A program made the translations under genes and the position numbers. 64,000 nucleotides of DNA from Escherichia coli (lineage in GTDB: Bacteria; Pseudomonadota; Gammaproteobacteria; Enterobacterales; Enterobacteriaceae): assembly GCF_030384885.1 (NCBI RefSeq), contig NZ_CP128613.1; one strand, written 5' to 3'. Positions 8,938 to 54,932 of the stretch are shown here, piece by piece; positions within the stretch are counted from its first letter, which is position 1; each line of letters starts with the position of its first letter. The notes beneath the pieces were generated by a model, which saw nothing but the letters and a program-made list of their open reading frames with translations, was not told the DNA's origin and ran no database searches.

Positions 8938-10362
8938 TTAATGTTTAACCATGACGTGGCGGACGACGGTGTAATCCTCCAACCCATAAAGTGACATATC
9001 CTTGCCGTAACCAGAAAGTTTCTGTCCACCGTGCGGCATTTCACTTACCAGCATGAAATGGGTATTGACCCAGGTACAACCATATTGCAGCCGTGCGCTG
9101 ACACGATGCGCCCTGCCCACATCTTTAGTCCATACCGAAGATGCAAGTCCGTACTGGCTGTCATTCGCCCAGTTCACCACCTGTTCTTCATTGTCAAAGG
9201 CCGTCACGCTCACCACCGGACCAAATACCTCTTTTTGCACGATGGCATCGTCCTGTAACGCGCCAGCCAGCAGCGTAGGCGCGTAGTAATAACCATTACC
9301 CTTGCGCTTTTCACCACCGGTGATCACTTTGATGTGCCCTGTCTCTTTCGCCTCTTCTACCGCCTTGCTGACACGTTCGAGATGCGCCAGCGAGCTTAAA
9401 GGTCCAAGCTCCGTAGACTCGTCATCCGGTGCACCAGATTTTAACGTTGCCACAGCAGCACCAAGTTTTTCCACCAGCGTATCGTAAATACCTTTTTGCG
9501 CGTAGATCCGACAAGCCGCAGTACAATCCTGTCCGGCATTGTAATAGCCAAAAGTACGTACACCTTCGACCACCGATTCAATATCCGCATCATCAAAAAC
9601 TATCACTGGCGCTTTGCCACCAAGTTCCATATGAGTACGCTTTATGGACGGCGCGGTATGGCTGATGATGTGTTCCCCAGTGGCGATAGAGCCCGTCAGC
9701 GACACCATCCGCACTTTGGGATGTCCGGTCAGCGGATCGCCCACTGTTTTGCCTCTGCCAAACAGCACATTAATCACGCCAGCCGGGAAGATATCTTTCG
9801 CCAGTTCAGCCAGCTTCAACGCTGTCAGCGGCGTAATTTCTGATGGTTTAAGCACTACGCAGTTCCCTGCCGCCAGCGCCGGAGCCAGTTTCCACGCGGC
9901 CATCATCAGCGGATAATTCCACGGTGCGATAGAAGCCACGACCCCCAACGGATCCCGACGGATCATTGAAGTATGACCTTCAAGGTATTCGCCGGCCGCC
10001 AGACCATTGAGGCAGCGCGCCGCCCCGGCGAAAAAGCGAAAGACATCGACAATCGCCGGAATTTCATCATTGAACGCACTATGCAGCGGTTTGCCACAAT
10101 TACGGGACTCCAGTTCGGCAAAAACCTGACCATTTTCTTCAATAACATCGGCCAGTTTCAGCAGGCATTCCGCACGCGCTTTCGGCGTGGTTTGCCCCCA
10201 TTCGGCAAATGCTGCATCTGCCGCGCGAACAGCAGCATCCACCTGCTCTGCGGATGCCTCGGCAATCTCCAGTAAAACGTCCCCCGTTGCCGGATTATAG
10301 ACAGGCTGTTTTTCCCCTTCGCCGCTAACCAGTTCTCCGTTAATCAGTAACTTATGTTGCAT
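8938..10362 (-). CDS. patD: Gamma-aminobutyraldehyde dehydrogenase PatD (YdcW)
   Basis: 474-aa aldehyde dehydrogenase with catalytic Cys/Glu context; N-terminus [27 protein letters not shown] matches PatD. Confidence 0.9.
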
Positions 10363-10383
10363 AGCATATTCCTGTATCAGTGG

Positions 10384-11178
10384 TTATTGACCATTGTCGC
10401 CTTCGCGGGTTAGCCACCAGGCCCCCAGGATCGGCAAGGTTGTTACCAACATAACCAGCAGTGCCACCACGTTGGTTACCGGTACATCACGTGGTCGCCC
10501 AAGCTGATTGAGCAACCACAACGGTAACGTTCGTTCATGACCTGCCGTAAAAGTCGTCACGATGATTTCATCGAACGACAAAGCAAACGCCAGCATTCCT
10601 CCTGCCAGTAGCGCCGAACTGAGATTCGGCAACACCACGTAGCGGAAGGTTTGCCAGCCATTGGCCCCAAGATCCATTGACGCCTCAACCAGACTCCAGG
10701 AGGTACGGCGAAAACGGGCGATGACATTGTTAAACACCACCACTACGCAAAAAGTCGCATGACCGACCACGATGGTGAAAAATCCCGGCTCCAGATTGAT
10801 GGTTTTAAAAGCAGTTAATAGCGCCAGACCAGTGACAATGCCCGGCAGCGCAATGGGCAGCAGCAATAGCAATGAAATGGCGCTTTTACCGAAAAAGTCC
10901 CGACGCCACAGCGCAGTAGCGGCCAGTGTCCCTAATACCAGCGCAATTAATGTCGCCAGCGCCGCCACTTTAAGTGACAGTGTCACGGCTTCAAGAATAT
11001 CACTACGCTGTGCTGCCACGCTAAACCAGCGCAGCGTCAGGCCTTGCGGTGGAAAACTAAACGCCGCATCTTCAGTGTTAAACGCATAGGCGGCGATAAT
11101 CAGGATGGGAAAATGTAGGAAAACCACGCCGCCCCAGGCCGCCAGTTTGAGGAGAAACGGTGCGCGTTCAGAGTGCAT
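10384..11178 (-). CDS. ydcV: ABC transporter permease YdcV (polyamine-type)
   Basis: 264-aa polytopic membrane ORF with a permease EAA-like loop; operon position after ydcU. Confidence 0.85.
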
Positions 11179-13140: not shown

Positions 13141-14286
13141 TTAGCGGCCGCCCATAATGGCAATATAATCCTGCGTCCAGCGACTGTAGGGAACAAACTT
13201 GCCCCCTTCTGCTATAGGCGTTTTCCAGAAGGCGATTTTATCGAAATAGTTAAAACCGTTTGTTTCACAACCTTTTTCGCCTAATAACGGACTGGCTTTA
13301 CACCCTTCCGGCACTACCGGTAACGAGCCAAACCAGGCCGCCACATCGCCCTGCACTTTTGGCGTTAATGACCAGTTCATCCATTTGTAGGCGCAAACCG
13401 GATGTTTCGCTTCGCTATGTAGCATGGTGGTGTCAGCCCAACCGGTAACGCCCTCCTTCGGGAAAACGGTAGCGACAGGCTGGCCTTCGGCTTTCAGGGC
13501 GTTGGCCTGATAGGGCCATGCACTGGAAGCAACCACACCCTCGTTTTTGAAATCGCTCATTTGCACGGTAGTGTCATGCCAGTAGCGATGGATCAAACTA
13601 TGTTGATCGCGCAGCACTTTCAGCACCGCCTGGTACTGTTCTTCGGTGAGTTGATACGGATCGCTGATGCCCAACTGCGGCTGAGTGGCTTTAACGAACA
13701 ACGCAGCATCCGCAATATAAATAGGGCCATCATAAGCCTGAACGCGGCCTTTATTGCTCTTACCGTCCGGCAGATTCTGCGCAACAAAAACCACTTGCCA
13801 GCTATCCGGCGGCGTCGGGAAGGTTTTCGTGTTGTACATCAGCAGGTTCGGCCCCCATTGGTAAGGAGTGCCGTAAACTTTGCCGCCAACGTTAAACCAG
13901 TCGCCTTTAACCACGCGCGGATCGAGCGCTTTCCAGTTGGGAATCAATGCGGTATTAATCGGCTGCACGCGTTTACCCATAATCAGGCGCAGCGAGGCAT
14001 CGCCGGACGCCGTAACCAGATCGTAACCCCCTTTGGTCATCAGACTGACCATTTCATCGGACGTCGCGGCGGTTTTTACATTCACCGCGCAACCTGTCTC
14101 TTTTTCGAATTGCGTTACCCAGTCGTATTGTTTATCGGTTTGTCCGCGTTCGATGTATCCCGGCCAGGCGATAATATCCAGTCGCCCTTCCGGTTTATCT
14201 AAATTGGTAGGCGGTTCGGCGGCGTGAGCGGTCATTATTATCATGGTGAGCGCACACAGGCTGCTGCGGGCAAATGTCTTGCTCAT
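13141..14286 (-). CDS. ydcS: Periplasmic polyamine-binding protein YdcS
   Basis: 381-aa ORF with signal peptide (MSKTFARSSLCALTMIIMTAHA) and PotD/PotF-like fold; first gene of the ydcSTUV-patD operon. Confidence 0.88.
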   Translation of the reverse strand: MSKTFARSSLCALTMIIMTAHAAEPPTNLDKPEGRLDIIAWPGYIERGQTDKQYDWVTQFEKETGCAVNVKTAATSDEMVSLMTKGGYDLVTASGDASLRLIMGKRVQPINTALIPNWKALDPRVVKGDWFNVGGKVYGTPYQWGPNLLMYNTKTFPTPPDSWQVVFVAQNLPDGKSNKGRVQAYDGPIYIADAALFVKATQPQLGISDPYQLTEEQYQAVLKVLRDQHSLIHRYWHDTTVQMSDFKNEGVVASSAWPYQANALKAEGQPVATVFPKEGVTGWADTTMLHSEAKHPVCAYKWMNWSLTPKVQGDVAAWFGSLPVVPEGCKASPLLGEKGCETNGFNYFDKIAFWKTPIAEGGKFVPYSRWTQDYIAIMGGR

Positions 14287-14530
14287 AAGGTCTTACTCCT
14301 GTCGTAATTAATTGTTCAGCCGCCGTGCCGTAAAAATATCTCCTTGTTTAACCATAGACGGCGGCTTGCAGGCACACCTTCGCCCCTGAGAAAATTTAAT
14401 CAGGTTGTGAGCTACCGCGCATTATGCCGTCTGTGAGATTATCTTCTGGAGTATAGACAAGGGGTTAGGAAATATGACTGCTATTCGAAATTCATATTAC
14501 CCAACCTAAGAGGAATTAAATTAAACGCTA

Positions 14531-15937
14531 TTACAGCCGTTCTTGAATAAGTTTGCCTAATTGTTTAACCGCCTGTTCTTCGCGCTCGCCCCACTGCCAT
14601 GCAGTATTAAAACGAAAAAAACGTGACCAGTTTGCACCGGTAGAAAACATTTTACCCGGCGCAATACTGATATGATGCGTCAGTGCTGCCAGGCTTAATT
14701 CGCCCGCATCTAACGGCGCGGGGAGTTCCAGCCAGAGAAAATAACCGCTGTCATTATGATGAATTTTCACTTCCGCAGGCAGATAACGCAGCAGTGCCTG
14801 CCAGGCACGTTGTTTACGTTCCGCAAGCTGGCGACGCAGGCGACGAAGATGGGCGTCGTATCGGCGCGTGGAAAGATAATCCACCAGCGCAAGCTGCATC
14901 GGTGAACTGGTCGAAAGCGTACTCATCAATTGCAAGCGTTGAATTTTACGTGCATGTTTTCCGGCGGCGACCCAACCAATACGAAAACCTGGCACCAGAC
15001 ATTTCGAAAACGAAGAGCAATGCAAAACGCCATCGTGGCGATCCCACGCTTTCGCAGGCAGCGGTTTTTCCCGTCCAAAATAAAGTTCGCTGTACACGTC
15101 ATCTTCAATCAGCGTTACGTTGTACTGATTGAGCAACGCTACCAGTTGTTCTTTTTTCTGCTGCGTTAAGGTAAAACCGAGTGGATTCTGGCTATTAGTC
15201 ATCAGCCAGCACGCTTTCACCGGATACTCCTGCAACGCCAGTTCCAGCGCCTGAAGATCGATCCCTTCGTTAACGTCCGTCGCCACCGATAACGCCTTCA
15301 GCCGTAACCGCTCCAGCGCCTGCAACGCGCCGTAGAAACAAGGATTCTCTACTATCACCCAATCGCCTGGTTCCGTTACCGCTTGTAAACTGAGGTTTAA
15401 TGCCTCTAACGCCCCGGCGGTAATGACAATTTCATCAGGAGAAATAGTGATGCCCTGTAAGGCATAGCGACGAGCAATAGCCTGACGCAGTTCTGCGTTT
15501 CCTGGCGGTAAGTTTTCAATCACGCTCATCGCCGTGGCGGTTTTGCTTACCTGCGCCAGCGAGCGGTTTAGTTGTTGGAGGGGGAAAAGTCGCGGGTCGG
15601 GAAAGGCCGAGGCAAACGGAACTACCGACGGATCGCGACTGGCCTGCAACATATCAAAAATATAGGTGTTGATATCGACTGCTTCATCTCGAGTGACTGG
15701 AATGACTGGCGCTTTCGGCATTTTTATTGCCTGTGGCGCAACGTAATAACCCGACTGCGGTCGCGCGATAATATGTCCCTGACTTTCGAGCAACTGATAG
15801 GCATGGCTGACGGTCATAAAGCTCATGCCAGAAAGCGCCACCTGGTCACGCAACGAAGGCAAACGATCTCCGGGTTGCCAGATCCCCGACGCAATCTGCT
15901 CGCGTAATTGTTCTGCAAGCTGCTGGTATTTTTTCAT
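14531..15937 (-). CDS. ydcR: MocR-family regulator YdcR (GntR HTH fused to aminotransferase-like PLP domain)
   Basis: 468-aa ORF with an N-terminal GntR-type HTH and a class-I aminotransferase-like C-terminal domain. Confidence 0.85.
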   Translation of the reverse strand: MKKYQQLAEQLREQIASGIWQPGDRLPSLRDQVALSGMSFMTVSHAYQLLESQGHIIARPQSGYYVAPQAIKMPKAPVIPVTRDEAVDINTYIFDMLQASRDPSVVPFASAFPDPRLFPLQQLNRSLAQVSKTATAMSVIENLPPGNAELRQAIARRYALQGITISPDEIVITAGALEALNLSLQAVTEPGDWVIVENPCFYGALQALERLRLKALSVATDVNEGIDLQALELALQEYPVKACWLMTNSQNPLGFTLTQQKKEQLVALLNQYNVTLIEDDVYSELYFGREKPLPAKAWDRHDGVLHCSSFSKCLVPGFRIGWVAAGKHARKIQRLQLMSTLSTSSPMQLALVDYLSTRRYDAHLRRLRRQLAERKQRAWQALLRYLPAEVKIHHNDSGYFLWLELPAPLDAGELSLAALTHHISIAPGKMFSTGANWSRFFRFNTAWQWGEREEQAVKQLGKLIQERL

Positions 15938-16015
15938 TATCGAATCGTTATTATGTGCAGGTGATTCGGCAGTCTATATCAGTTGTTAAAAATGACAACT
16001 TTTCATTAACTGTTA

Positions 16016-16255
<240 letters not shown>

Positions 16256-16430
16256 TTACCTCCGTGTGTAATGTGCTCGAAAATAGCACTAAATCGCCGC
16301 AACGGCAGAATGCAATGCAAAATCAGGAAGGAAGATTCCAGAATTTCTTTGCGCTAATTTGCAAAACTGAATAATAACCTCAAGAAACGATCGGCATCAT
16401 AGCGGCAAAAGGTCAGAAAAAGGTGGCGAG

Positions 16431-16661
16431 ATGTTTTCGAAGGCGTTATCGGTTGTCTTATTAACGTGTGCACTGTTCTCAGGACAACTCATGGCAGGGC
16501 ACAAAGGACATGAATTTATGTGGGTAAAGAATGTGGATCATCAGCTGCGTCATGAAGCGGACAGCGATGAATTGCGTGCTGTGGCGGAAGAGTCGGCGGA
16601 AGGTTTGCGCGAGCATTTTTACTGGCAAAAATCGCGCAAACCAGAAGCGGGACAGCGTTGA
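16431..16661 (+). CDS. yncJ: Small secreted protein YncJ (DUF2554)
   Basis: 76-aa ORF with signal peptide (MFSKALSVVLLTCALFSGQLMA); length and position match YncJ. Confidence 0.85.
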   Translation: MFSKALSVVLLTCALFSGQLMAGHKGHEFMWVKNVDHQLRHEADSDELRAVAEESAEGLREHFYWQKSRKPEAGQR

Positions 16662-16669
16662 GTCATTTG

Positions 16670-16705
16670 TTGCCGGATGCGGCATAACGCCTTACCCGGC
16701 CGACA
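16670..16705. repeat. REP (repetitive extragenic palindromic) element
   Basis: tgccggatgcggcataacgccttacccggcc closely matches the E. coli REP consensus GCCGGATGCGGCGTAAACGCCTTATCCGGC; lies between convergent yncJ and ydcP. Confidence 0.75.
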
Positions 16706-16752
16706 AGATCATGCAGATTCAATAAGTTGTGAGTAACCAGAAAACTGGCGTT

Positions 16753-18714
16753 TTACCCTTTTCGCTTCGGCAATGTTTTCAGCAGCTCATCCGGACTAAC
16801 GGATGCCACTACGCTTCCCGGTAACGGCATTTTCAGTATGTGATTTTTGATTTTGCCAATGACGTGCATCTCACATGGGCGACAATCGAACTTTAGCGTT
16901 AATACTTCATCGCCATTAACCAGTTGCATTGGCGTCGCCTTCCAGCTTTTGATGTTACCTTTTGCCTGTTTCGGACACAGATTGAAGGCAAAGCGCAGAC
17001 AATGCTTGGTGATCATTACCGGCACTTCCCCCTTCTCTTCATGCGCTTCATACGCCGCATCAATCAGTTGCACACCATAGCGATGATAAAATTCACGCGC
17101 TTTGTGGTTGTAAACGTTCGCGAGGAAACTCAAATGCGTTTGCGGATAAACCGGCGCAGGGTCAGCAACCGGTTTACGACTGCCGCGCTGATAACTGGCA
17201 AGACGCGCAGCATCCAGCATTTCGGCGGCCTCACGGCGGAACTGATTTAACAGACTGTTCGGTACAAACAGCGCACCAGGCAAATTAATTTGCACATCGC
17301 GGGCGTAATAGAGGGTTTGCCCCAGCTTAGCCAGACCATCTTTCAGGTTATTAAGCGCTTTTTCGGCGTTATTAGCTTCGTCGAATTGTCCATCCAGCGT
17401 ATGCGTGACGCTGACGCCCTCTTCACTGGTCAGGGTCAGAATCAGTTGTTCCTGCCAGCCGCCCAGTTCAATGTCTACCGCTACGCGACGTTCGCTGGAT
17501 GTTTTGGTCAACGCCTGCTGCCAGTTATGGTCCAGATTACGATTAAGCGGATGATGCGGACGAATTTTATGCAAATCCGCAGGCATCTCATTTGGCCAGA
17601 CGCGGTACTGATTTTGCCCGGTTTTTTCGACTGTATTGGCGCGAAAGCCAACCACTTCACGTTTAATCATCACATTCAGACCATCGCCATTTGCTAACGG
17701 CTCGGTGACGGCAACATCGAGATGATCCTTCGCCACTTTTAATACTTCACCGACCGGCAGGCCGATAAACTTGGGGGAGTCGAACGCGCCGATATCCCCT
17801 TTACGGGCGTTAACAAAGTAGTCGGTACTGCCACGATGGAAGGTTTTTTCCGTCGACGGTACGAAGAAATGCTCGGTACGACCGGATGAAGCACGCGCCA
17901 GATCGCCACGTTCATCAATAATGGCGTCCAGCATTTGGCGATAATGCGCGGTGATATTCTTCACGTAGCTCATATCTTTGTAACGCCCTTCAATCTTGAA
18001 GGAGCGCACGCCAGCATCAATCAGCGCGCCAAGGTTAGCAGTCTGATCGTTATCTTTCATCGACAGCAGATGTTTTTCATAGGAAACCACCCGCCCCTGA
18101 TCGTCTTTCAATGTGTATGGCAAACGGCATGCCTGCGAGCAATCGCCACGGTTGGCGCTACGCCCTGTTTGCGCATGAGAAATGTAGCACTGACCAGAAT
18201 AGGCCACGCACAATGCACCATGAATAAAGAATTCAATGGTCGCGTCCGTGGCCTGGTGAATCGCGCGGATCTGCTCAAGATTCAGCTCTCGCGCCAGCAC
18301 AATCTGCGTAAAGCCAACATCAGAGAGGAACTTCGCTTTTTCTACTGTGCGAATATCGCACTGCGTACTGGCGTGCAGTTCAATCGGCGGAATATCAAGT
18401 TCCAGAATCCCCATATCCTGAACAATCAGCGCATCGACGCCGGTCTGGTAGAGGTCGGTAATCAGCCGTTGCGCAGGGTCCAGCTCATCATCATGCAAAA
18501 TGGTGTTAAGCGTGACGAAAATTTTTGCACCATAACGATGGGCAAACGGCACCAGTTCGGCAATATCTTTCAGGCTATTACTGGCATTATGACGGGCACC
18601 AAAACCAGGGCCGCCGATATAAACAGCATCGGCACCGTGCAAAATAGCTTCGCGGGCAATGGCGGCATCGCGTGCCGGGCTTAACAGTTCAAGTCGATGA
18701 GAAGATACGGTCAC
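16753..18714 (-). CDS. ydcP: Peptidase U32-family protein YdcP (RlhA, 23S rRNA 5-hydroxycytidine synthase)
   Basis: ORF 16753-18756; U32 collagenase-like sequence. GTG at 18712-18714 gives the remembered 653 aa; the first ATG would give 667 aa. Confidence 0.85.
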   Translation of the reverse strand: MTVSSHRLELLSPARDAAIAREAILHGADAVYIGGPGFGARHNASNSLKDIAELVPFAHRYGAKIFVTLNTILHDDELDPAQRLITDLYQTGVDALIVQDMGILELDIPPIELHASTQCDIRTVEKAKFLSDVGFTQIVLARELNLEQIRAIHQATDATIEFFIHGALCVAYSGQCYISHAQTGRSANRGDCSQACRLPYTLKDDQGRVVSYEKHLLSMKDNDQTANLGALIDAGVRSFKIEGRYKDMSYVKNITAHYRQMLDAIIDERGDLARASSGRTEHFFVPSTEKTFHRGSTDYFVNARKGDIGAFDSPKFIGLPVGEVLKVAKDHLDVAVTEPLANGDGLNVMIKREVVGFRANTVEKTGQNQYRVWPNEMPADLHKIRPHHPLNRNLDHNWQQALTKTSSERRVAVDIELGGWQEQLILTLTSEEGVSVTHTLDGQFDEANNAEKALNNLKDGLAKLGQTLYYARDVQINLPGALFVPNSLLNQFRREAAEMLDAARLASYQRGSRKPVADPAPVYPQTHLSFLANVYNHKAREFYHRYGVQLIDAAYEAHEEKGEVPVMITKHCLRFAFNLCPKQAKGNIKSWKATPMQLVNGDEVLTLKFDCRPCEMHVIGKIKNHILKMPLPGSVVASVSPDELLKTLPKRKG

Positions 18715-18786
18715 ATTCTTATCCAGTAGCTGAAAAATGGCGGCTATTTTAGCCACAAGCGCGACGTTGCGAAATAGTTTTCCCGC

Positions 18787-19323
18787 TTAACTGCGTGGGT
18801 AATGGATGAGGGAATGAAAATGTACGATTTGCTCCCCACCATTACGATAGACATGCGTAACGTCTGCAGCAAATCGAGCGCCTTTTCCACAATTAAGGCT
18901 CTGCCATTCACCATCAACGCACAGATCAAGTTGCCCATCAATGACGACAACATGTTCGATTACTCCCTTCTCATGGGGCGTCGATTCACTTATTGCACCG
19001 GGAGCCATCTGAATTGAGAAGTGTTCAAAGCAGAGTTGCGGATCATAAGGAAACAGCGAAGTGATCACCATCGCCTGCTGTTGCGGATCATAAACTGAAG
19101 GCGTAGCGGACTGCGGCGGAGAAATAAATGTCGAAAATGGCACATTCAACCCGGTGGCAATTTTCCATAATGTCGCGACCGTCGGGCTGGACTCATTACG
19201 TTCAATCTGCCCTAACATCGCTTTAGAAACCCCCGTCGCTTCTGCCAGTCGCGAAAGACTCCAGCCGCGCTGCTGACGTAGTTGTTTAAGTGTGGTGGAT
19301 AAAAAGCGAGTGAGATTTTCCAT
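18787..19323 (-). CDS. sutR: XRE-family HTH plus cupin regulator SutR (YdcN)
   Basis: 178-aa ORF with N-terminal HTH (LSRLAEATGVSKAMLGQIERNESSPT) and C-terminal cupin domain. Confidence 0.88.
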   Translation of the reverse strand: MENLTRFLSTTLKQLRQQRGWSLSRLAEATGVSKAMLGQIERNESSPTVATLWKIATGLNVPFSTFISPPQSATPSVYDPQQQAMVITSLFPYDPQLCFEHFSIQMAPGAISESTPHEKGVIEHVVVIDGQLDLCVDGEWQSLNCGKGARFAADVTHVYRNGGEQIVHFHSLIHYPRS

Positions 19324-19414
19324 GTGACTCCTCCGGCAAAGCGGAAGTTTATCACTTGTGCGTTATAACGGACAAATGCTACGGTACCTGTACGCTATAA
19401 CGCACGAGGTGACC

Positions 19415-20587
19415 ATGCGTCTGTTTTCTATTCCTCCACCCACGCTACTGGCGGGGTTTCTGGCGGTATTAATTGGCTACGCCAGTTCAGCGGCAATAAT
19501 CTGGCAAGCAGCGATTGTCGCCGGAGCCACCACTGCACAAATCTCTGGCTGGATGACGGCGCTGGGGCTGGCAATGGGCGTCAGTACGCTGGCTCTGACA
19601 TTATGGTATCGCGTACCTGTTCTCACTGCATGGTCAACGCCGGGCGCAGCTTTGCTGGTTACCGGATTGCAGGGACTGACACTTAACCAAGCCATCGGTG
19701 TTTTTATTGTCACCAACGCGTTAATAGTCCTCTGTGGTGTGACGGGATTATTCGCCCGTTTGATGCGTATTATTCCGCACTCGCTGGCAGCGGCGATGCT
19801 GGCCGGAATTTTGTTACGCTTTGGTTTACAGGCGTTTGCAAGTCTGGATGGTCAGTTTACGTTATGCGGTAGTATGTTGCTGGCGTGGCTGGCGACAAAA
19901 ACTTTTGCGCCGCGTTATGCGGTAATTGCGGCGATGATAGTTGGCATCGTAATCGTTATTTTACAAGGTGACGTTGTCACAGGGGATATTGCCTTTAAAC
20001 CCGTTCTCCCCGCTTATATTGCCCCTGAATTTTCGTTTGCTCACAGTCTGAGCGTTGCACTCCCCCTTTTTCTGGTGACGATGGCATCGCAAAACGCACC
20101 GGGTATTGCGGCAATGAAAGCGGCCGGGTATTCGGCTCCTGTTTCGCCGTTGATTGTATTTACTGGATTGCTGGCGCTGGTATTTTCCCCTTTCGGGGTT
20201 TATTCCGTCGGTATTGCTGCAATCACCGCAGCTATTTGTCAAAGCCCGGAAGCGCATCCGGATAAAGATCAACGTTGGCTGGCAGCTGCCGTTGCAGGCA
20301 TTTTTTATTTGCTCGCAGGTCTTTTTGGTAGTGCTATTACCGGGATGATGGCTGCCCTGCCCGTAAGTTGGATCCAGATGCTGGCAGGTCTGGCGCTGTT
20401 AAGTACCATTGGCGGCAGTTTGTATCAGGCGCTGCATAATGAGCGTGAGCGAGACGCGGCGGTGGTGGCATTTCTGGTAACGGCAAGTGGATTGACGCTG
20501 GTCGGGATTGGTTCTGCGTTCTGGGGATTAATTGCCGGAGGCGTTTGTTACGTGGTGTTGAATTTAATCGCTGACAGAAACCGATAA
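19415..20587 (+). CDS. ydcO: BenE-family inner membrane transporter YdcO
   Basis: ORF 19358-20587; start at MRLFSIPPPT (ATG 19415) gives ~390 aa; highly hydrophobic polytopic protein. Confidence 0.85.
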   Translation: MRLFSIPPPTLLAGFLAVLIGYASSAAIIWQAAIVAGATTAQISGWMTALGLAMGVSTLALTLWYRVPVLTAWSTPGAALLVTGLQGLTLNQAIGVFIVTNALIVLCGVTGLFARLMRIIPHSLAAAMLAGILLRFGLQAFASLDGQFTLCGSMLLAWLATKTFAPRYAVIAAMIVGIVIVILQGDVVTGDIAFKPVLPAYIAPEFSFAHSLSVALPLFLVTMASQNAPGIAAMKAAGYSAPVSPLIVFTGLLALVFSPFGVYSVGIAAITAAICQSPEAHPDKDQRWLAAAVAGIFYLLAGLFGSAITGMMAALPVSWIQMLAGLALLSTIGGSLYQALHNERERDAAVVAFLVTASGLTLVGIGSAFWGLIAGGVCYVVLNLIADRNR

Positions 20588-20589
20588 TA

Positions 20590-20620
20590 AAAAGCGCCAT
20601 CTTACGATGGCGCGGCTGGA
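20590..20620. terminator. Bidirectional hairpin terminator between convergent ydcO and ydcL
   Basis: gcgccatc-ttac-gatggcgc stem-loop, with a T-run on the minus strand (ttttattatc). Confidence 0.6.
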
Positions 20621-20621
20621 A

Positions 20622-21290
20622 TTACTTTTTGTTAACGTCAAACATAGTGGCATCGGTCGCCATGTCATCAATAACTTGCTTAATATTCTCGAAAGCCATT
20701 GGCGTACTTTCATTATTCAGGTCTTTACCTTCGCCCTGACGAACGACTTTGATAACCGGTTTATTAGTAGCTGCATCAATCAGCTCACCTTCAAAATACA
20801 GGCGAGTATCCATGGTACGGTGGCCCGTCGCCATTTGCGTCCCCGCGACCACTAATGCGACAGGAACCACTTCATAGAATTGCAGCCCTTCTTTGCTGGT
20901 ATCTACACCGGTAATGGCCCCACGGAAAATCAGACTACGCGGCCCAGCGGTGGTAACCAGTGGTTTACGCTGCGCAATCGCTTCTTTCATTTCGGTGTTG
21001 GTATAACTCAAAATTTTATCCAGAACTTTCTGCCCTACCTGGGTAGATGGTTTCGGTACCGGATAATAAGTGATTGGGTTCCAGACGATGCTGTCATATT
21101 TACTTTGATCAAAACTCGGGTCTACCCAACGTAAAACAGGTTTACCTGTTGCTGAGGTTGTTTCTTTTAAATCAGAGTAATTGTTTAAAAAACCAGAATA
21201 TTTATCTGGCTGGGTGATTTTAGAGGCACAACCAGACAGAGCCAACAAGCCGCATAAAGCTGCAACTTTCGCAATTGATGTGGTACGCAT
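20622..21290 (-). CDS. ydcL: Lipoprotein YdcL (DUF3313)
   Basis: 222-aa ORF with lipobox (LALSGCASK). Confidence 0.85.
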   Translation of the reverse strand: MRTTSIAKVAALCGLLALSGCASKITQPDKYSGFLNNYSDLKETTSATGKPVLRWVDPSFDQSKYDSIVWNPITYYPVPKPSTQVGQKVLDKILSYTNTEMKEAIAQRKPLVTTAGPRSLIFRGAITGVDTSKEGLQFYEVVPVALVVAGTQMATGHRTMDTRLYFEGELIDAATNKPVIKVVRQGEGKDLNNESTPMAFENIKQVIDDMATDATMFDVNKK

Positions 21291-21592: not shown

Positions 21593-22186
21593 TTATTTTT
21601 TACGTGCCAGCATCGTGGCGAAACGCAGTTTAATCCGATTACCGTTGGCATCGGTGCGGTGCAACTCACCGACGTCTTCATTGTATTTCACCATCTCCCA
21701 GCCTTCGTAATATCGACGTAATTCTCCTTCTTTGAAGGCAAACGGGAAGCCGACGGTACATGGATAATCAGCGGTATCCATCGCCGCCACAATCAGGTTG
21801 TAACCACCAGGTTTAGTGCAACGTTGCATATTGGCAATAAGCCCAGGGATGGTTTTATCCTCAAGGAACATCAGCACCACAGTCGAAAGAATAAAATCGT
21901 ACTGCCCATCAAATGTGAAGTTATTCAGATCAACAACCCGGGTGTGTAAATTATCCAGATTTTCAATGGATTTAATCCGCTCGACGTTGGCGATACTCAT
22001 GGCATTTTTATCCCATGCGTCAACTTCATAACCATTGGCTGCCAGGTAAAGACTGTTACGACCATTGCCACAGCCCAGATCCAGCGTTTTACCGGCTTTA
22101 ACCACTTTCACCGCTTCCAGTACTTCAGAGTGTGTGCGGGTTAATTCATATTTTTCAGTAAAATAGTTTTCGTCACGGATGATCAT
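21593..22186 (-). CDS. tehB: Tellurite methyltransferase TehB (SAM-dependent)
   Basis: 197-aa ORF with SAM-binding motif ([15 protein letters not shown]); overlaps the tehA stop by 4 nt. Confidence 0.92.
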
Positions 22187-23175
22187 TCTTTGTCCTCAGC
22201 TTTCATTAAAACAGCGCGCTCTGTTTTGATTAACAATTTCCCCTGCATCAGAAGCGCGAAAGTACGGATAAGCAGTATTGCTATTATAAAATTGGTAAAG
22301 ATAAACAGCGGCACCGCCAGGGTATGGAAAAATCCATTATTGCTGCCACTCCCCAAATGCAAACCGGTGGTTGCCAGTGCGGAAACGCCGAACGAGAAAC
22401 TCCAGAATGAAGCATTAAATGGTTGGGAGAGATACCATGGCATCAGACGTAGCATAAACAGCAGTTGCAGCAGTCCATAACCGAAAAGCATTTTTGCCAG
22501 CGTGTCCCCCTCGCCGCCGTTGACGCTTAGCCAGGCACTACAGGCCACCAGCGCAGGAGCGAGCTGAATGCCGAGTGATGTCCGCAATGCCGTGGGTAAC
22601 TCTCCCGAACTGCGCAGACGCTGAAGGATCACCGGTTCCAGACTTAACCATGAGAAAACGCCTGCGCCTAAAAACACCAGACCGGCGTCGGTGTAGCCCA
22701 ATGCACCACAGGCCATTGCGCTGATAAAGTTGTTGGCAACTGTCGGCAGATACAGTCCAGGCGTGGTAGCTTCTTCAGGATGAGATCCGCGCCATAATCC
22801 CGCAGTTTGCCAGGCGGCATAAGCCAACTGAACCACGACACCAAAACTGAACAGGCATACCGCCAGTGGGCGAAACCACGGAACAAAACCAATCGCCACC
22901 AGCATCGTCGTTGCCGGAAACAAACTCACAAAACTGCTCATCACTGGATGGCGCACTTCCGCCAGCACGCTATGCGGAAAGCGTATGAGTCGGGTAATAA
23001 ATGCGCTAGTCAATAATCCCCAGATGATCATCGCCAGAATCACTAGCCCATCCCCTAACCAGTGGCTGACCTGCCAAACCTGGCTGGCATAGCGCCAGGC
23101 AAATCCCATCCCTATCGTCCCCAACACAATACCAAAGTAGCCTGCCGGCAAATTGAGCACTTTATCGCTCTGCAT
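22183..23175 (-). CDS. tehA: Tellurite resistance / dicarboxylate-type anion channel TehA
   Basis: ORF 22183-23283; start at [19 protein letters not shown] gives 330 aa; polytopic membrane protein. Confidence 0.9.
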
Positions 23176-23298
23176 CTTCTTACTCATTTTGTTTAATTTA
23201 TAAAGTATATTTGAAATACATTTTATGGAATTTTCTCGAGCATAGCCAGAGCCGCAGAATTTGCTACGGTTATAGTAAGTCACCTGTGGGAAAACGCT

Positions 23299-24278
23299 AT
23301 GCGCAAATATCGTCTAAGTGAAGAACAGCGAGCCTTTAGTTATCAGGATGATGGCACTAAAAAAAGTGTGTTATTATGGCAAATTATCGCCATGAGCGAT
23401 TTTAACGATGTGATAGCAGGAACCGCTGGCGGCTGGATCGATCGCGAAACGGTGTTAGCACAGGAAGGAAATTGCTGGATTTACGACCAGAATGCTATTG
23501 CGTTCGGCGGAACGGTGATTTCCGGTAATACGCGTATCACCGGCACCAGCGTCCTTTGGGGAGAGGTTTACGCAACGGATAACGTCTGGATCGATAATAG
23601 TGAAGTCAGTCAGGGTGCATATATAAGTGACAGTGTCACCATTCGTGACTCATTAGTTTGCGGTCAATGTAGAATATTTGGTCACGCTTAATTGATCAAC
23701 ATTCTATGATCGTCGCCGCGCAAGGCTTAACCTCCGACCATCAACTCCTGCTACAAATTTATGATCGCGCAAGGGTTAGCGCCTCGCGTATTGTCCACCA
23801 GGCACAAATTTATGGCGATGCCGTCGTCCGGTATGCTTTTATTGAACATCGCGCCGAAGTTTTTGATTTTGCCAGTATTGAAGGTAATGAAGAGAACAAC
23901 GTCTGGCTATGCGATTGCGCTAAAGTCTACGGTCACGCGCAGGTGAAAGCTGGCATAGAAGAAGATGCCATTCCGACAATTCATTACAGTTCGCAGGTAG
24001 CGGAATATGCCATTGTGGAAGGTAATTGTGTGTTAAAACATCATGTCTTGATTGGCGGAAAGGCAGTGGTACGTGGCGGACCGATTCTGCTCGACGAACA
24101 CGTTGTAATACAAGGTGAGAGCCGTATTACAGGTGCGGTGATAATTGAAAACCATGTGGAGTTGACCGACCACGCCGTCGTTGAAGCCTTTGATGGCGAC
24201 ACGGTTCATGTCCGTGGTCCAAAAGTCATTAACGGCGAAGAGCTCATTACGCGAACGCCGCTGGCAGGGTTATTGTGA
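23299..24278 (+). pseudogene. ydcK: ydcK, hexapeptide-repeat protein disrupted by a 1-bp frameshift
   Basis: Two adjacent ORFs (23299-23691 frame 1; 23706-24278 frame 3). Frame 1 ends ...CRIFGHA-TAA; frame 3 reads [14 protein letters not shown]... straight through the junction. The sequence gcttaattg would read G H A L I D Q if one more T were present. Combined span 980 nt, one short of a 981-nt (326 aa + stop) gene. Confidence 0.6.
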
Positions 24279-24809
24279 ATCGATAATACGCGCGTATAAG
24301 TTCACATCATCATAGGCATCATTCAGAAACTCAGCCTGTTTCAGGCAACCTTCAAGGATAAAACCATTGCGCAAAGCGACCTGGTTGCTTTGCGCATTAT
24401 CCACCCGACATTTGATCACGAAGCGTCTAAGTTCACCAGACTGAGCGTAATGATGAATCAATGCCTGCAGCGCCTGAGAAATGATCCCCTGCCCCTGATG
24501 AGATTCGTCCAGCCAGTAGCCGATTTCAGCGGTTTTATTCAGTGGTTCAATACGATTAAACGAGATAACGCCGATAAGTTCATCTTCTTTGAAAATCATG
24601 AACATTTTGGCATAGCCGCGTTGATGCAACATTACATTGCCCTGCACCGTTTTTCGCGTGTCCTCTTCACTTTGAACAAACTGCGGCCAGTTTAGCGACT
24701 GCTGTAACCAGGTTCTATTTTTACAGATTAACTGATAAAGAGGTGTGACATGACTTTCTGCAACAGCATGTAATTCAAGTGATTCACTTACTTTTATCGT
24801 TTCAGCCAT
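24270..24809 (-). CDS. rimL: Ribosomal-protein L7/L12 serine N-acetyltransferase RimL (GNAT)
   Basis: ORF 24270-24824; start at [16 protein letters not shown]... gives 179 aa; GNAT fold motifs. Confidence 0.88.
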
Positions 24810-49394: not shown

Positions 49395-52300
49395 TTAGAA
49401 CGTTTTCTTGAAGTTCAGCATCACACCTTTATCGCTGATACCATCCTCTTTCCAGTGGTAAGCATCCAGATTCAGCGAGCTCTCTTTGCTGCTGTACTTC
49501 ACGCCGACGCTTGCCAGGCTGTTGATACCGCCGCCCTTTTGCCCATCATCGACATTAAAGTGCTGGCTGCCTGCGCCTGCCAGGCTTGCCGTGCGCTGGC
49601 TCTTCGTGTAGCTCAGGTTTGGCCCACCTTCCAGCGTGGCGTTCGCACTCCAGCCGTCTTTGCCTGCGTAGTCCAGCTTCAGCCCAACGATGCTGTCCAC
49701 CGCCGTTTCGCTGCCGCTGTTCATACTCAGGTTAAAGTCTCCGGCATTACGCTCCTGATAACCGCCTTCCAGCGTGTGACGCAGTTTCACACTCGCATAT
49801 GGCGTGATTTTCAGCCCTTCGCGCGGTTCAAAGGTTTTCGCCCCTTCGCTGCGGAACTCCAGGTACTGCTGTTTCACATTCGTGTCTGCCGTCTTACTGA
49901 TGTCGCCGTAAGCCACCGAACGGCTGCTGTCCAGTTGGTGGATATCGTAACGCAGCGCGTTATTCCAGCTCATACCGTTGTCAAAGGACATCTGATGCTT
50001 CAGGCCAAAGAACTGGCTGTAGCCGCCTGTAACACCGTTATCACCCGCTTTCTGCGCACCGTCGCCGTCCAGACGGGCGATACCGTACTCCAGGCTCATG
50101 GTCTGGTTTTCGCTCAGGTCGAGGGTTTTGCGCAGCGCCAGCATGTCGTACTCGGTATTATTCCCCAGCTCTGCACGCGGATCGCCTTTCGCCACCACGT
50201 TAAATGCCAGACCGTTGCCCATCTTCGGTGCGGCGTCTGCCAGCATACTAAAGCGATTGCTTAACACACGCGCTTCGCGGAATACCGTGGTCGCCTGGCT
50301 ACCGCTAATTTGCTTAAGTGCGCTGTTCAGCTCTGCAGTGGTGCCGACGTTCAGACTGGTATACAGCTCATTGTTGGTGTAACCCGCATCCAGCGCTTTT
50401 GCCACGTCATTCACTGAGGCATCCGTCGCCACATCGGTGTAGGCTTTTTTGCTCATGGTCACGTCAACGTTGCCGCTGGCGTCGGTACTGCCTGTCGCCT
50501 GCCAGACAACAGATGTCGAAGTGATCGCTTGCGCATCGGTCAGGTTGCTGCCTTGCACCACATCATCAAAGCTGACGGTTTTGTCCACCGTTCCCGCCGC
50601 AAAAGCGGTGTTGATCTCCACGCCATTCATACTGGCGTTATTGACCATCAGCTTACCGGCGCTACCGTCGGCGTTCGTCCCCACCACGTAACCATTGAGG
50701 TTGTTCATGCCATCGTTGCGGCTAACGGAAGAAGAATGGCTGCCGTCGTATGGCGTAATGGTGGGTTCTTCCGGCGCGGTAAAGTCGACATAGTGTACTT
50801 CCGTACCGTCTCCCCCTTCGCCACTGCCCTCTATCGGCGTGCCAGATTGTTTAATCAATCCGGAACCATTCACGTTGTCGTCAATATAAACAGTGCCGTT
50901 GTTAACAATATGACCATTGCTCCCGAGCTTGCTGAAGGCGAAGGAGTTATTGGCGTAGATATTAATCGTACCGTTGTTTTCAACCACACCATCCGCTTTG
51001 GCGTCCGATGCTAATTGCATCCCAATCATGCCTGTTTGTGTCGTGCCTTCGCTGCCGACATTGATGGTGCCATTGTTAACCATTTTTGCGCTGCCGTGCG
51101 CATTCATGGCGATGGTATTATTTTTATCAATATTGATAGTGCCATCGTTAATTGCCCGGCTACCGGCGTTATTATTTGACGTCGTAACCTGGCCGTTAAT
51201 CACACCTGTCGTACCGTTATACAATGTATGCCCATTACCGCCGGTAGCGATATCAGCATCCCCATTCACTGTACCCCAGTTGTTGAAATGCCCAGCCCAA
51301 AGTCCGTTATCAAGAAGATCGACAACACCACCGTCCAGGTTATTGAAGGTCGCGTTTTTATCAACCGAACCACTATGAACCGTTCCTGCGTTATTGAATG
51401 TGGCTGCGGCAGAAAAATTCACTTTATTGACCGTTCCACCCGCTTCGTTATTCATCACGGCAGAAGCAGAGGCTCCCTTCCATGCTGTTACCGTCCCGGC
51501 GTTATAAAACGTACTGGCCCATTGTTCAACAGTGTTGATAGTGCCGGAGTTGTTGATAACAGAACCCGCAACGGTTGTACCTACTTGCCCGGTCACTACA
51601 CCTTCGTTAGTAAACACGCCGCCATCCACAGAAACGGTTTTTGTCGTGCCCTGGTTGGTGTATTCCCCACCCGTTGCAATATCAACCTCGTTTATACTGC
51701 CCGTGGTTTCATTGACCAGATGACCAAAGTCAGCCACGGTGACAGGCCCTCCGGTTACGGTACCCGCGTTGGTTACCAGGGTTTCAGCGGTCGCTATCAT
51801 ATCAGTAGAACCACCGGATGAAGACAGGTTAAGCGTCTCCCCCTCGGCCGTAATGATATCGCCGTTTCTCCAGCTTAATGAAACGAACCCATCAGTCGGG
51901 TTATAGGCGTTACTGTCCTGGCATATACCAAAAGTACAGATGGTTCCGTAATTAACGATAGTCCCGCTGCCATCGTTATAGAATGCCTGCCCGTTTTCAG
52001 CATTGATATTGATGATGCCCGTCTGGTCATTAACTGCGGTACCGCCACTATAAACTGCCATACCAACGAGTTTATTCGCCCCCAGGCTGCCATCAAAGTT
52101 CTCATTCTTCTCGAGGTTGATGGTACCCTGATTAACCACCGTATTATCGGTACCGTATGCTGCCATCCCAGCACCTGCATTATAGATAGTGATAGTACCT
52201 GACTGCTGGTTAAGCGCGGTAGCATTTTGCCTTGCGCCACCATAACTGTCCGTTCCTACCGCCATGCCGACACCATAATTTTTTGCATTGCTGCTGCCGA

Positions 52301-54932
52301 TATCGTTGCGTAAGGTGGTGGTATCGTTTTCATCTACCCAGATCGTATCCAGGGTAATCTGGCCTGCATTTGTTACAGTCGAATGATTAATCGCCAGCAT
52401 ACCGACATTACCCCGGCCATACATATCAATAACGCCATTCGCACCATTTAGCGCTGAACCATTATCCTGAGCAGTCATGCCCGTCATACTAACAACGCCA
52501 CTATTAAAAACCGTGGGATCGCTCAATGACAAAGCATTGAACATATTCAAAACGCTATACTGTTCCATCACTTTAGCCGTAATGGTACCGTTATTCACCG
52601 CCGTCCCACCTTCGGAGCTAAAGAAGGCTTTATTACCGGATTCCGGCGATACATCAATTGCGGATGAGTAATCATATTGCTCAAGTAAAACATTACCGTT
52701 ATTCGTTGCAACGGAACCCGTACCCGATATATTGGTAAACCCCATATTCCAGAGCTCAACAAACCCGTTATTGATAACTTGTGACCCTGAACTGACGCTA
52801 AGTATTTCTGATGGGTTATTGCCATAATGCGCGTAAACGTCAATATCCTTCATACTGAAGGTCGCATCCTCCGTGATTTCAAGAAAAGCATTATTGCTTA
52901 CCTGAATAATATTTGCATAGCCCAGCGGAAATTGACCGCTGACTGAGGAGTCTCCTCCCAGATAAACCGACGAATGACCATCAACCTTAATGAGCGGAAT
53001 ATCACCATAGCCCGTACGACTTGCGGCTGGGACTGAACCATCCGTCATAGCCGATGCTTCACCGAAAAGTTGAATACCCCCCCGTAAGGTAACGCTATTT
53101 TCATCCCCTGAAATCACCAACCCACTGATGTTTTCTTGGCTACCATTGACAGTACTATAGGTGTGATGCGCAAGTTCGCTATCAACCTTCAATGTTAACT
53201 GACCATCCAGCGTCAGGTCATTATTGTTACCCGAAACACGAATACCTACGGAAGAATCGAAAAAGTGTTCTGCTGCATTATCAGTCGTCTGATCTTTATC
53301 CACCATAATATTACCGGTAATTTCAACTTCATTGCCATCACCGGCCACATTTACCCCTGTAGCAACACTGCCAGTCACATTAAGCTCATTCGTTGCCAGC
53401 GTCATGGTGTTATTATTTCCAGACACATCCAGACCGGTTGAATAATCCCCAACATCCATACGGCCAGCCAGAGAAATTTCGCCCCCATCTCCAACAACGC
53501 GAATCCCGGTACTGGCATTTCTGGCAGTGATATCCCCCACATTGATAAGAGTAGAATGATTACCCTCAATCAGAATCCCTGTCGCATTGGCCTCTGAACT
53601 ACCATTACTGACGGAAATATCCCCCCTGTTAATGAACGTCGACGCATCACCACTGAGAGAAACACCCAGCGAATTTTCATCCACGACCGTTATATTGCCT
53701 TTGTTGCTGACGATCGCGCCATTACCCTCAACATCAATACCCCGAGCAGCATTGCTAACGTATAAATCCCCTTCCTGTATAACCGTCGCATTATTACCAA
53801 CGATTTTGCTGCCCGTTGAATTTTGCCCATCAACCGTCATATGTCCTTTATTATCGGTCCTGACATCATTACCGATAATAAGGGCCCCTGTTCCACCATT
53901 ATTGACGGTGGAGTCGCCAGTGTTATTTAAGATTGTACGATCGCCATTAACGATAACCGCCGTGCCAGCATCGACCACCGTCTGACCGTTATTATTAATG
54001 GTTATATTATCGCCGGTCAGGATACCGACCACCGAATCTTCACCGACAGCCTCTGTTTTACCCTCGTTTGTCAGCGCAATGTTGTCACCATTAATCATCA
54101 TCACTGTACCGCCATTCAGGGCCGTGTTGCCGCCCTGGTCAGTGATAATTGCATCATTAACGGTAATTATTCTGCCCGTTGTTCCATCAGACACGACGCT
54201 GGCTAACTGTGTGACGTGGAGTTTACCTTCGTCATCATAGCGCCATTCCGTATCACCAGTGGTACTCACTCCACTAAAGATGGCGGTATGAGTCTCTTCA
54301 TGGTTTTCCCACTCAGTCACAATGGTTTTTCGGCCATCTTTTGCCGTCAGCGTGTAGCTACCATCTTCATTTTGGGTATAAGTGAACGTCGCCCCGCGAA
54401 TCTTCAAGGTTTGCGCGTCCTTGTCCCATGTCACATTGTTTTCAAAGACAACGGGTTCTGTTCTCGGGGGGTCAACATCATCATCGCTATTGTCGGGTGG
54501 AGTAACATCACCGCCTTTATCTGGGGGGGTAACATCATCGGCGTTATCTGGCTTTACAGGTATATCTGAATCTTCATCACTGGGAAGGGGTGGCGGTAGA
54601 GAGCCATTATCATCTGGCGGTATGGGCTGGGAAAAAGAAGAGTGAGCAGAATGATCATTGTCATGAGACAATTCAATCACTGCGAGTGTTGCCAGTACCG
54701 CCGTGGCACCTAATGCCAGTAACGAGCTGAAACCATTATTTGTAACAACAGCACATTTTTCTGGCACTGTTTTCAACTTCATTGACGGTCGGGCGTGCCC
54801 TTCTGACTGACATGTCATTTGAGAGCTTCTGCGCATACTGTCTGCACTCTCGCCTTCTGTTATTTCCGCCCCCCAGCTTTGGCCACTTAACGCTATAGCG
54901 ATACACGCTGATAATAACGTTTTCTTTTGCAT
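49395..54932 (-). CDS. ydbA: Autotransporter YdbA, uninterrupted 1845-aa reading frame (beta-helical passenger plus C-terminal beta-barrel translocator)
   Basis: Signal peptide; Pro/Asp-rich N-terminal repeats; long Gly/Asn/Thr-rich degenerate repeats typical of beta-helix passengers; C-terminus ends ...MLNFKKTF (terminal aromatic) as in autotransporter barrels. One continuous ORF, no IS sequences inside. Confidence 0.85.
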   Translation of the reverse strand: MQKKTLLSACIAIALSGQSWGAEITEGESADSMRRSSQMTCQSEGHARPSMKLKTVPEKCAVVTNNGFSSLLALGATAVLATLAVIELSHDNDHSAHSSFSQPIPPDDNGSLPPPLPSDEDSDIPVKPDNADDVTPPDKGGDVTPPDNSDDDVDPPRTEPVVFENNVTWDKDAQTLKIRGATFTYTQNEDGSYTLTAKDGRKTIVTEWENHEETHTAIFSGVSTTGDTEWRYDDEGKLHVTQLASVVSDGTTGRIITVNDAIITDQGGNTALNGGTVMMINGDNIALTNEGKTEAVGEDSVVGILTGDNITINNNGQTVVDAGTAVIVNGDRTILNNTGDSTVNNGGTGALIIGNDVRTDNKGHMTVDGQNSTGSKIVGNNATVIQEGDLYVSNAARGIDVEGNGAIVSNKGNITVVDENSLGVSLSGDASTFINRGDISVSNGSSEANATGILIEGNHSTLINVGDITARNASTGIRVVGDGGEISLAGRMDVGDYSTGLDVSGNNNTMTLATNELNVTGSVATGVNVAGDGNEVEITGNIMVDKDQTTDNAAEHFFDSSVGIRVSGNNNDLTLDGQLTLKVDSELAHHTYSTVNGSQENISGLVISGDENSVTLRGGIQLFGEASAMTDGSVPAASRTGYGDIPLIKVDGHSSVYLGGDSSVSGQFPLGYANIIQVSNNAFLEITEDATFSMKDIDVYAHYGNNPSEILSVSSGSQVINNGFVELWNMGFTNISGTGSVATNNGNVLLEQYDYSSAIDVSPESGNKAFFSSEGGTAVNNGTITAKVMEQYSVLNMFNALSLSDPTVFNSGVVSMTGMTAQDNGSALNGANGVIDMYGRGNVGMLAINHSTVTNAGQITLDTIWVDENDTTTLRNDIGSSNAKNYGVGMAVGTDSYGGARQNATALNQQSGTITIYNAGAGMAAYGTDNTVVNQGTINLEKNENFDGSLGANKLVGMAVYSGGTAVNDQTGIININAENGQAFYNDGSGTIVNYGTICTFGICQDSNAYNPTDGFVSLSWRNGDIITAEGETLNLSSSGGSTDMIATAETLVTNAGTVTGGPVTVADFGHLVNETTGSINEVDIATGGEYTNQGTTKTVSVDGGVFTNEGVVTGQVGTTVAGSVINNSGTINTVEQWASTFYNAGTVTAWKGASASAVMNNEAGGTVNKVNFSAAATFNNAGTVHSGSVDKNATFNNLDGGVVDLLDNGLWAGHFNNWGTVNGDADIATGGNGHTLYNGTTGVINGQVTTSNNNAGSRAINDGTINIDKNNTIAMNAHGSAKMVNNGTINVGSEGTTQTGMIGMQLASDAKADGVVENNGTINIYANNSFAFSKLGSNGHIVNNGTVYIDDNVNGSGLIKQSGTPIEGSGEGGDGTEVHYVDFTAPEEPTITPYDGSHSSSVSRNDGMNNLNGYVVGTNADGSAGKLMVNNASMNGVEINTAFAAGTVDKTVSFDDVVQGSNLTDAQAITSTSVVWQATGSTDASGNVDVTMSKKAYTDVATDASVNDVAKALDAGYTNNELYTSLNVGTTAELNSALKQISGSQATTVFREARVLSNRFSMLADAAPKMGNGLAFNVVAKGDPRAELGNNTEYDMLALRKTLDLSENQTMSLEYGIARLDGDGAQKAGDNGVTGGYSQFFGLKHQMSFDNGMSWNNALRYDIHQLDSSRSVAYGDISKTADTNVKQQYLEFRSEGAKTFEPREGLKITPYASVKLRHTLEGGYQERNAGDFNLSMNSGSETAVDSIVGLKLDYAGKDGWSANATLEGGPNLSYTKSQRTASLAGAGSQHFNVDDGQKGGGINSLASVGVKYSSKESSLNLDAYHWKEDGISDKGVMLNFKKTF

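Follow-up and report, generated by a model that had tools for sequence, protein, structure and literature searches.

Within the window, the 64,000-nucleotide stretch of DNA that was analysed, the list of open reading frames places two consecutive ORFs on the + strand, at 23299-23691 (130 aa) and 23706-24278 (190 aa), at the position of ydcK. This layout raises the question of whether the two are separate working units, one gene that is still read across a frameshift, a gene broken by a genuine mutation, or an intact gene that was misread. We conclude that ydcK here is very probably a recent, genuine frameshift pseudogene, the result of an ordinary loss of one C in a small clone of cryptic clade I.

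Layout and identity of the split gene

The two ORFs correspond to residues 1-130 and 137-326 of YdcK, a protein of 326 aa. The 5' fragment (23299..23691, + strand) comprises codons 1-130 followed by a premature TAA, and its product is identical to residues 1-130 of the intact protein WP_074500982.1. The 3' part (23688..24278, + strand) lies in the -1 frame and holds codons 132-326 together with the native stop; the ORF listed from 23706 begins within it, at the ATG of the internal native Met137. Translation of the junction confirmed that frame 3 reads through it continuously, as an earlier note on this DNA had described.

Comparison with the NCBIfam profile YdcK_fam (NF040481, 326 positions) yielded the same division. 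The 5' fragment aligns to positions 1-130 with 191.7 bits and the 3' fragment to positions 137-326 with 341.4 bits; an intact orthologue scores 553.7 bits. YdcK_fam is an equivalog profile with a cutoff of 350 bits, which neither window fragment reaches. The break is straddled by the left-handed beta-helix (LbH) stretch that Pfam places at residues 56-140, and the Salmonella YdcK structures 2f9c and 2pig consist of one chain, aligned over residues 1-325. Since the fragments match positions 1-130 and 137-326 of one profile, the LbH stretch spans the break and the structures are single-chain, the two ORFs are parts of one gene. The proposal of the earlier note that they are consecutive parts of one protein is thereby borne out. 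The finding that it had named as speaking against this, orthologues that are naturally two genes, was not encountered: the orthologues and the solved Salmonella structure represent one continuous frame.

The divergent upstream neighbour and synteny marker tehA (22183..23175, - strand) was located by mapping the annotation of strain 2013C-4282 onto the window. The convergent downstream neighbour rimL (24270..24809, - strand), present in the ORF list and in the same annotation, overlaps the 3' end of the ydcK coding sequence by 9 nt (24270-24278). These tehA and rimL flanks, together with 99.9% DNA identity over 1,081 nt to the ydcK of NZ_CP027579.1, place the locus in the family by position. 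Judged by the profile scores, the locus is ydcK by descent and no longer codes for a family-complete protein.

The single-base deletion, its rarity and its inheritance

A 1,081-nt query covering the locus found matches in 5,412 of the 5,426 complete E. coli genomes. At 99.9%, 2013C-4282 (NZ_CP027579.1) matched best; in this record the corresponding stretch has 1,082 bases, and the annotation shows an intact ydcK CDS of 981 nt between tehA and rimL. In the alignment, GGTCACGCCTTAATTGATC of the intact genomes stands against GGTCACGCTTAATTGATC in the window. The intact codons CAC GCC TTA ATT GAT (H A L I D) have become CAC GCT TAA TTG AT: one C of the CC doublet in codon 131 (GCC, Ala131) is gone, leaving G-C-T where intact genomes have G-C-C-T (23686..23688, + strand), with the lone C at 23687. 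The site is given alike by the alignment with 2013C-4282 and 2017-02-2CC and by the list of differences from NZ_CP027579.1, and this single-base indel is the sole difference from 2013C-4282, the closest genome, within ydcK. An indel whose length is not divisible by three has led from codon 131 directly into a premature stop, TAA at 23689..23691 (+ strand), which results when the intact TTA (Leu132) and the following A, from ATT, are read with a one-base offset.

The earlier note had ascribed the change to the loss of one T from a T-run at about 23686-23692. We rejected this candidate on the strength of the alignment, in which the missing base proves to be one C from a CC doublet and no T-run is present; positions 23686-23692 read GCTTAAT, and no homopolymer of four or more bases occurs within 23600-23760. 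What stands of that claim is that the frame-1 TAA was created by a shift of frame through single-base loss; the identity of the base does not stand. The check that the note had suggested, alignment to ydcK from other E. coli, revealed the intact CC in every other E. coli examined.

Across the whole 64,000-base window, the alignment with 2013C-4282 contains seven substitutions and one indel, the missing C in ydcK, and no other complete E. coli genome exceeds about 98.2% identity over a 24-kb stretch. 2013C-4282 is a stx1-positive member of Escherichia cryptic clade I, lineage A, with serotype OG9:H45 (PMC10100065). On the evidence of this near-identity, the background of the window is likewise Escherichia cryptic clade I (lineage A, OG9:H45). 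The seven substitutions comprise V61A in opgD, G14S in ynbD, one synonymous change in nifJ and four changes in one autotransporter gene. This last gene (49395-54932, - strand) is intact and encodes 1,846 aa; three of its four SNPs are non-synonymous (T51M, G389D and I837M), and recombination between repeats or diversifying selection may account for this local excess. Elsewhere in the window, we observed a remnant of a hicB antitoxin gene (16016-16252, - strand), which is partial, with its N-terminus missing, in the 2013C-4282 annotation and has no hicA annotated adjacent to it. The same annotation places a CatB-related O-acetyltransferase gene (7895-8704, - strand) between yncL and patD.

A 30-mer spanning the deletion was present in none of the 5,426 complete E. 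coli genomes. The matching intact 31-mer, serving as a positive control, was found at 100% identity in 3,867 of them, and a 60-mer query matched 3,873 genomes, all with a one-base gap relative to the window; the 30-mer and 60-mer searches are blind to about 1,550 complete genomes that differ locally by SNPs. Given these three counts, the single-C state is derived and rare.

The exact 130-aa product is recorded on nine contigs and the exact 190-aa product on ten, and the deletion was confirmed in the DNA of at least six independent public datasets from Logan and NCBI. The Logan dataset ERR2987533 is 100% identical to the window over the 20.6 kb compared. SRR34938331, SRR34489103 and SRR32234830, also from Logan, carry the deletion within flanks that are 100% identical to the window, Logan SRR35948513 carries it along with one private SNP, and the NCBI draft GCA_036346665.1 along with two, one of which results in Y62F in the truncated product. 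ERR2987533 represents strain 14S03600-2, a Dutch isolate of 2014 from bovine faeces that is assigned to clade I lineage A, OG9:H45, so that its lineage and serotype match those of 2013C-4282. At least three genotypes from different sources therefore have the deletion in common. Because it recurs in at least six datasets and at least three genotypes with private SNPs, the deletion has been passed on as a mutation within a circulating clone and is not an artefact; reproducibility in independent data and inheritance are what is expected of a real frameshift pseudogene. Among the explanations offered by the earlier note, these datasets and the intact CC elsewhere favour a genuine pseudogenising mutation.

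Predicted loss of YdcK and the competing explanations

We postulate that an ordinary spontaneous single-base deletion removed one C of the codon-131 doublet in an ancestor of a small clade I clone (lineage A, OG9:H45), a sister of 2013C-4282. Translation from the native start would then reach a stop after 130 residues, at TAA 23689-23691, partway through the left-handed beta-helix domain. Because the other 195 codons are in the -1 frame and lack a separate ribosome-binding site, full-length YdcK would not be made. The missing recoding signals, described below, suggest that YdcK function is lost in the carriers, and this loss is presumably tolerated because ydcK is dispensable. A full-text literature search for ydcK returned no functional study and no report of the C deletion.

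It is very improbable that the loss of ydcK is non-neutral in the clade I lineage, either through selection for inactivation or through altered convergent transcription into rimL. Selection for inactivation could lie behind the two independent 1-nt deletions, at codon 131 here and codon 237 in a related strain, that have struck one ydcK allele. With regard to transcription, the rimL-ydcK pair is among the listed candidate excludons (PMC12288877), and the early stop in ydcK would, if the idea is true, alter transcription into rimL and thus change the acetylation of ribosomal protein L7/L12. A scan of 23100-24500 for promoters and terminators gave nothing above shuffle expectation. Polarity would have no target, as ydcK is not followed by any gene on its own strand.

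We consider it very improbable that the locus yields two working polypeptides, with a 130-aa N-fragment and a 190-aa C-fragment, the latter made by reinitiation at ATG 23706, reassembling or partly keeping a functional beta-helix. The ATG lies only 14 nt past the new stop, close enough for translational coupling, and both ORFs are intact in every deletion carrier examined. However, with a mutation this young the intactness of the downstream codons carries no information on selection, no Shine-Dalgarno-like sequence precedes ATG 23706, residues 131-136 would be missing, and the break falls inside the LbH stretch of a protein that has been solved as a single chain. Some termination-reinitiation would be conceivable and would yield the 190-aa C-terminal fragment, but inefficiently, and this product would be devoid of the N-terminal 136 residues.

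An error of sequencing or assembly, such as a homopolymer miscall in a gene that is really intact, is highly unlikely, even though long-read assemblies typically err by single-base indels and the nearest complete genome, 2013C-4282, has an intact ydcK. The site is a CC doublet and not a homopolymer run, and a sole indel across 64 kb relative to 2013C-4282 is not what an error-prone assembly would look like. We rejected this explanation, which the earlier note had also entertained, on account of the exact truncated products and of the same deletion in at least six independently made datasets (separate Logan runs and an NCBI draft), two of them with private SNPs.

There is next to no likelihood that full-length YdcK is made or toggled by a programmed -1 frameshift, transcriptional slippage or a slipped-strand phase switch. 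Slipped-strand or programmed frameshifting had been a further suggestion of the earlier note, and the downstream frame is indeed open, so that the protein would be restored by a -1 shift within 23673-23689. However, 23299-23691 contains no X XXY YYZ heptamer in the zero frame, and the six codons of this 17-nt rescue window all fail to re-pair after a -1 shift. Folding of the 89 nt downstream is no more stable than that of shuffled controls (MFE -16.5 kcal/mol, shuffle mean -16.0, z = -0.17). The rest of E. coli, like Salmonella, has one continuous ORF, and the deletion is younger than the split from a strain only 7 SNPs apart in 64 kb (2013C-4282). The rescue window is bounded by a -1-frame TAG (23670-23672) and the zero-frame TAA at 23689, and no base run within it would serve transcriptional slippage or slipped-strand mispairing. 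Slipped-strand contingency tracts typically comprise 7 or more units; here, a CC has been reduced to a C. All three processes were therefore discarded, with no slippery heptamer, homopolymer or stimulatory structure at hand and an arrangement that is not conserved.

Other broken ydcK copies and comparison with known systems

The intact protein of the window's ydcK allele is recorded from 507 contigs. A second frameshift of this allele, the loss of a T in codon 237 that leaves a 245-aa product, was found on seven contigs and marks a related strain, for example that of Logan SRR35649766. In the contig from that dataset, positions 10001-10980 are the equivalent of window 23299-24278, and about 176 SNPs are concentrated in the approximately 7.8 kb upstream (window ~13300-21100), in what looks like a recombined block. 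A third lesion, E198* (GAA to TAA), occurs in 8 of the 5,426 complete genomes and on hundreds of draft contigs; PGAP flags the copy as a pseudogene with an 'internal stop', for example at 1155708-1156688 of NZ_CP027355.1. E198* and the deletion in the window are independent events. An extra C in codon 153 of an ENA long-read contig was not counted as a lesion; neighbouring genes are also split there, and we treated the contig as a noisy assembly.

The pattern of broken ydcK copies looks like sporadic decay of a dispensable gene and by itself is no proof of selection for loss. Three independent lesions support the view that ydcK is dispensable in natural populations, and the biological weight of the present case is small, adding one more lineage-specific pseudogene in such a gene. 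Its practical value is twofold. The correct annotation of the locus is a frameshifted ydcK pseudogene and not two hypothetical proteins, and the single-C deletion can be used as a clonal marker for a cryptic clade I OG9:H45 sublineage related to the stx1-positive strain 2013C-4282.

Set beside known systems, the locus shares its order of tehA, ydcK and rimL with the intact ydcK (b1428) of E. coli, and differs from it by the absence of one C in codon 131, with which a 326-aa product is impossible by normal translation. Programmed -1 frameshifting in E. coli dnaX uses A AAA AAG and a downstream stem-loop. Readthrough in ydcK would, as in dnaX, need a -1 shift shortly before the zero-frame stop, whereas the ydcK site has neither the slippery heptamer nor the stimulatory structure nor the conservation. 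The codon-237 lesion resembles that of the window as a 1-nt deletion outside any repeat tract on the same allele background, but it lies at another site, in a strain that differs by the recombined upstream block of ~7.8 kb. The E198* ydcK of E. coli 2013C-4991 and seven other complete genomes is, like that of the window, lineage-restricted and split by gene callers into two ORFs (197 and 111 aa); it differs in its allele (96.4% identical), in the position of the lesion and in the kind of mutation, a nonsense substitution in place of a 1-nt deletion.
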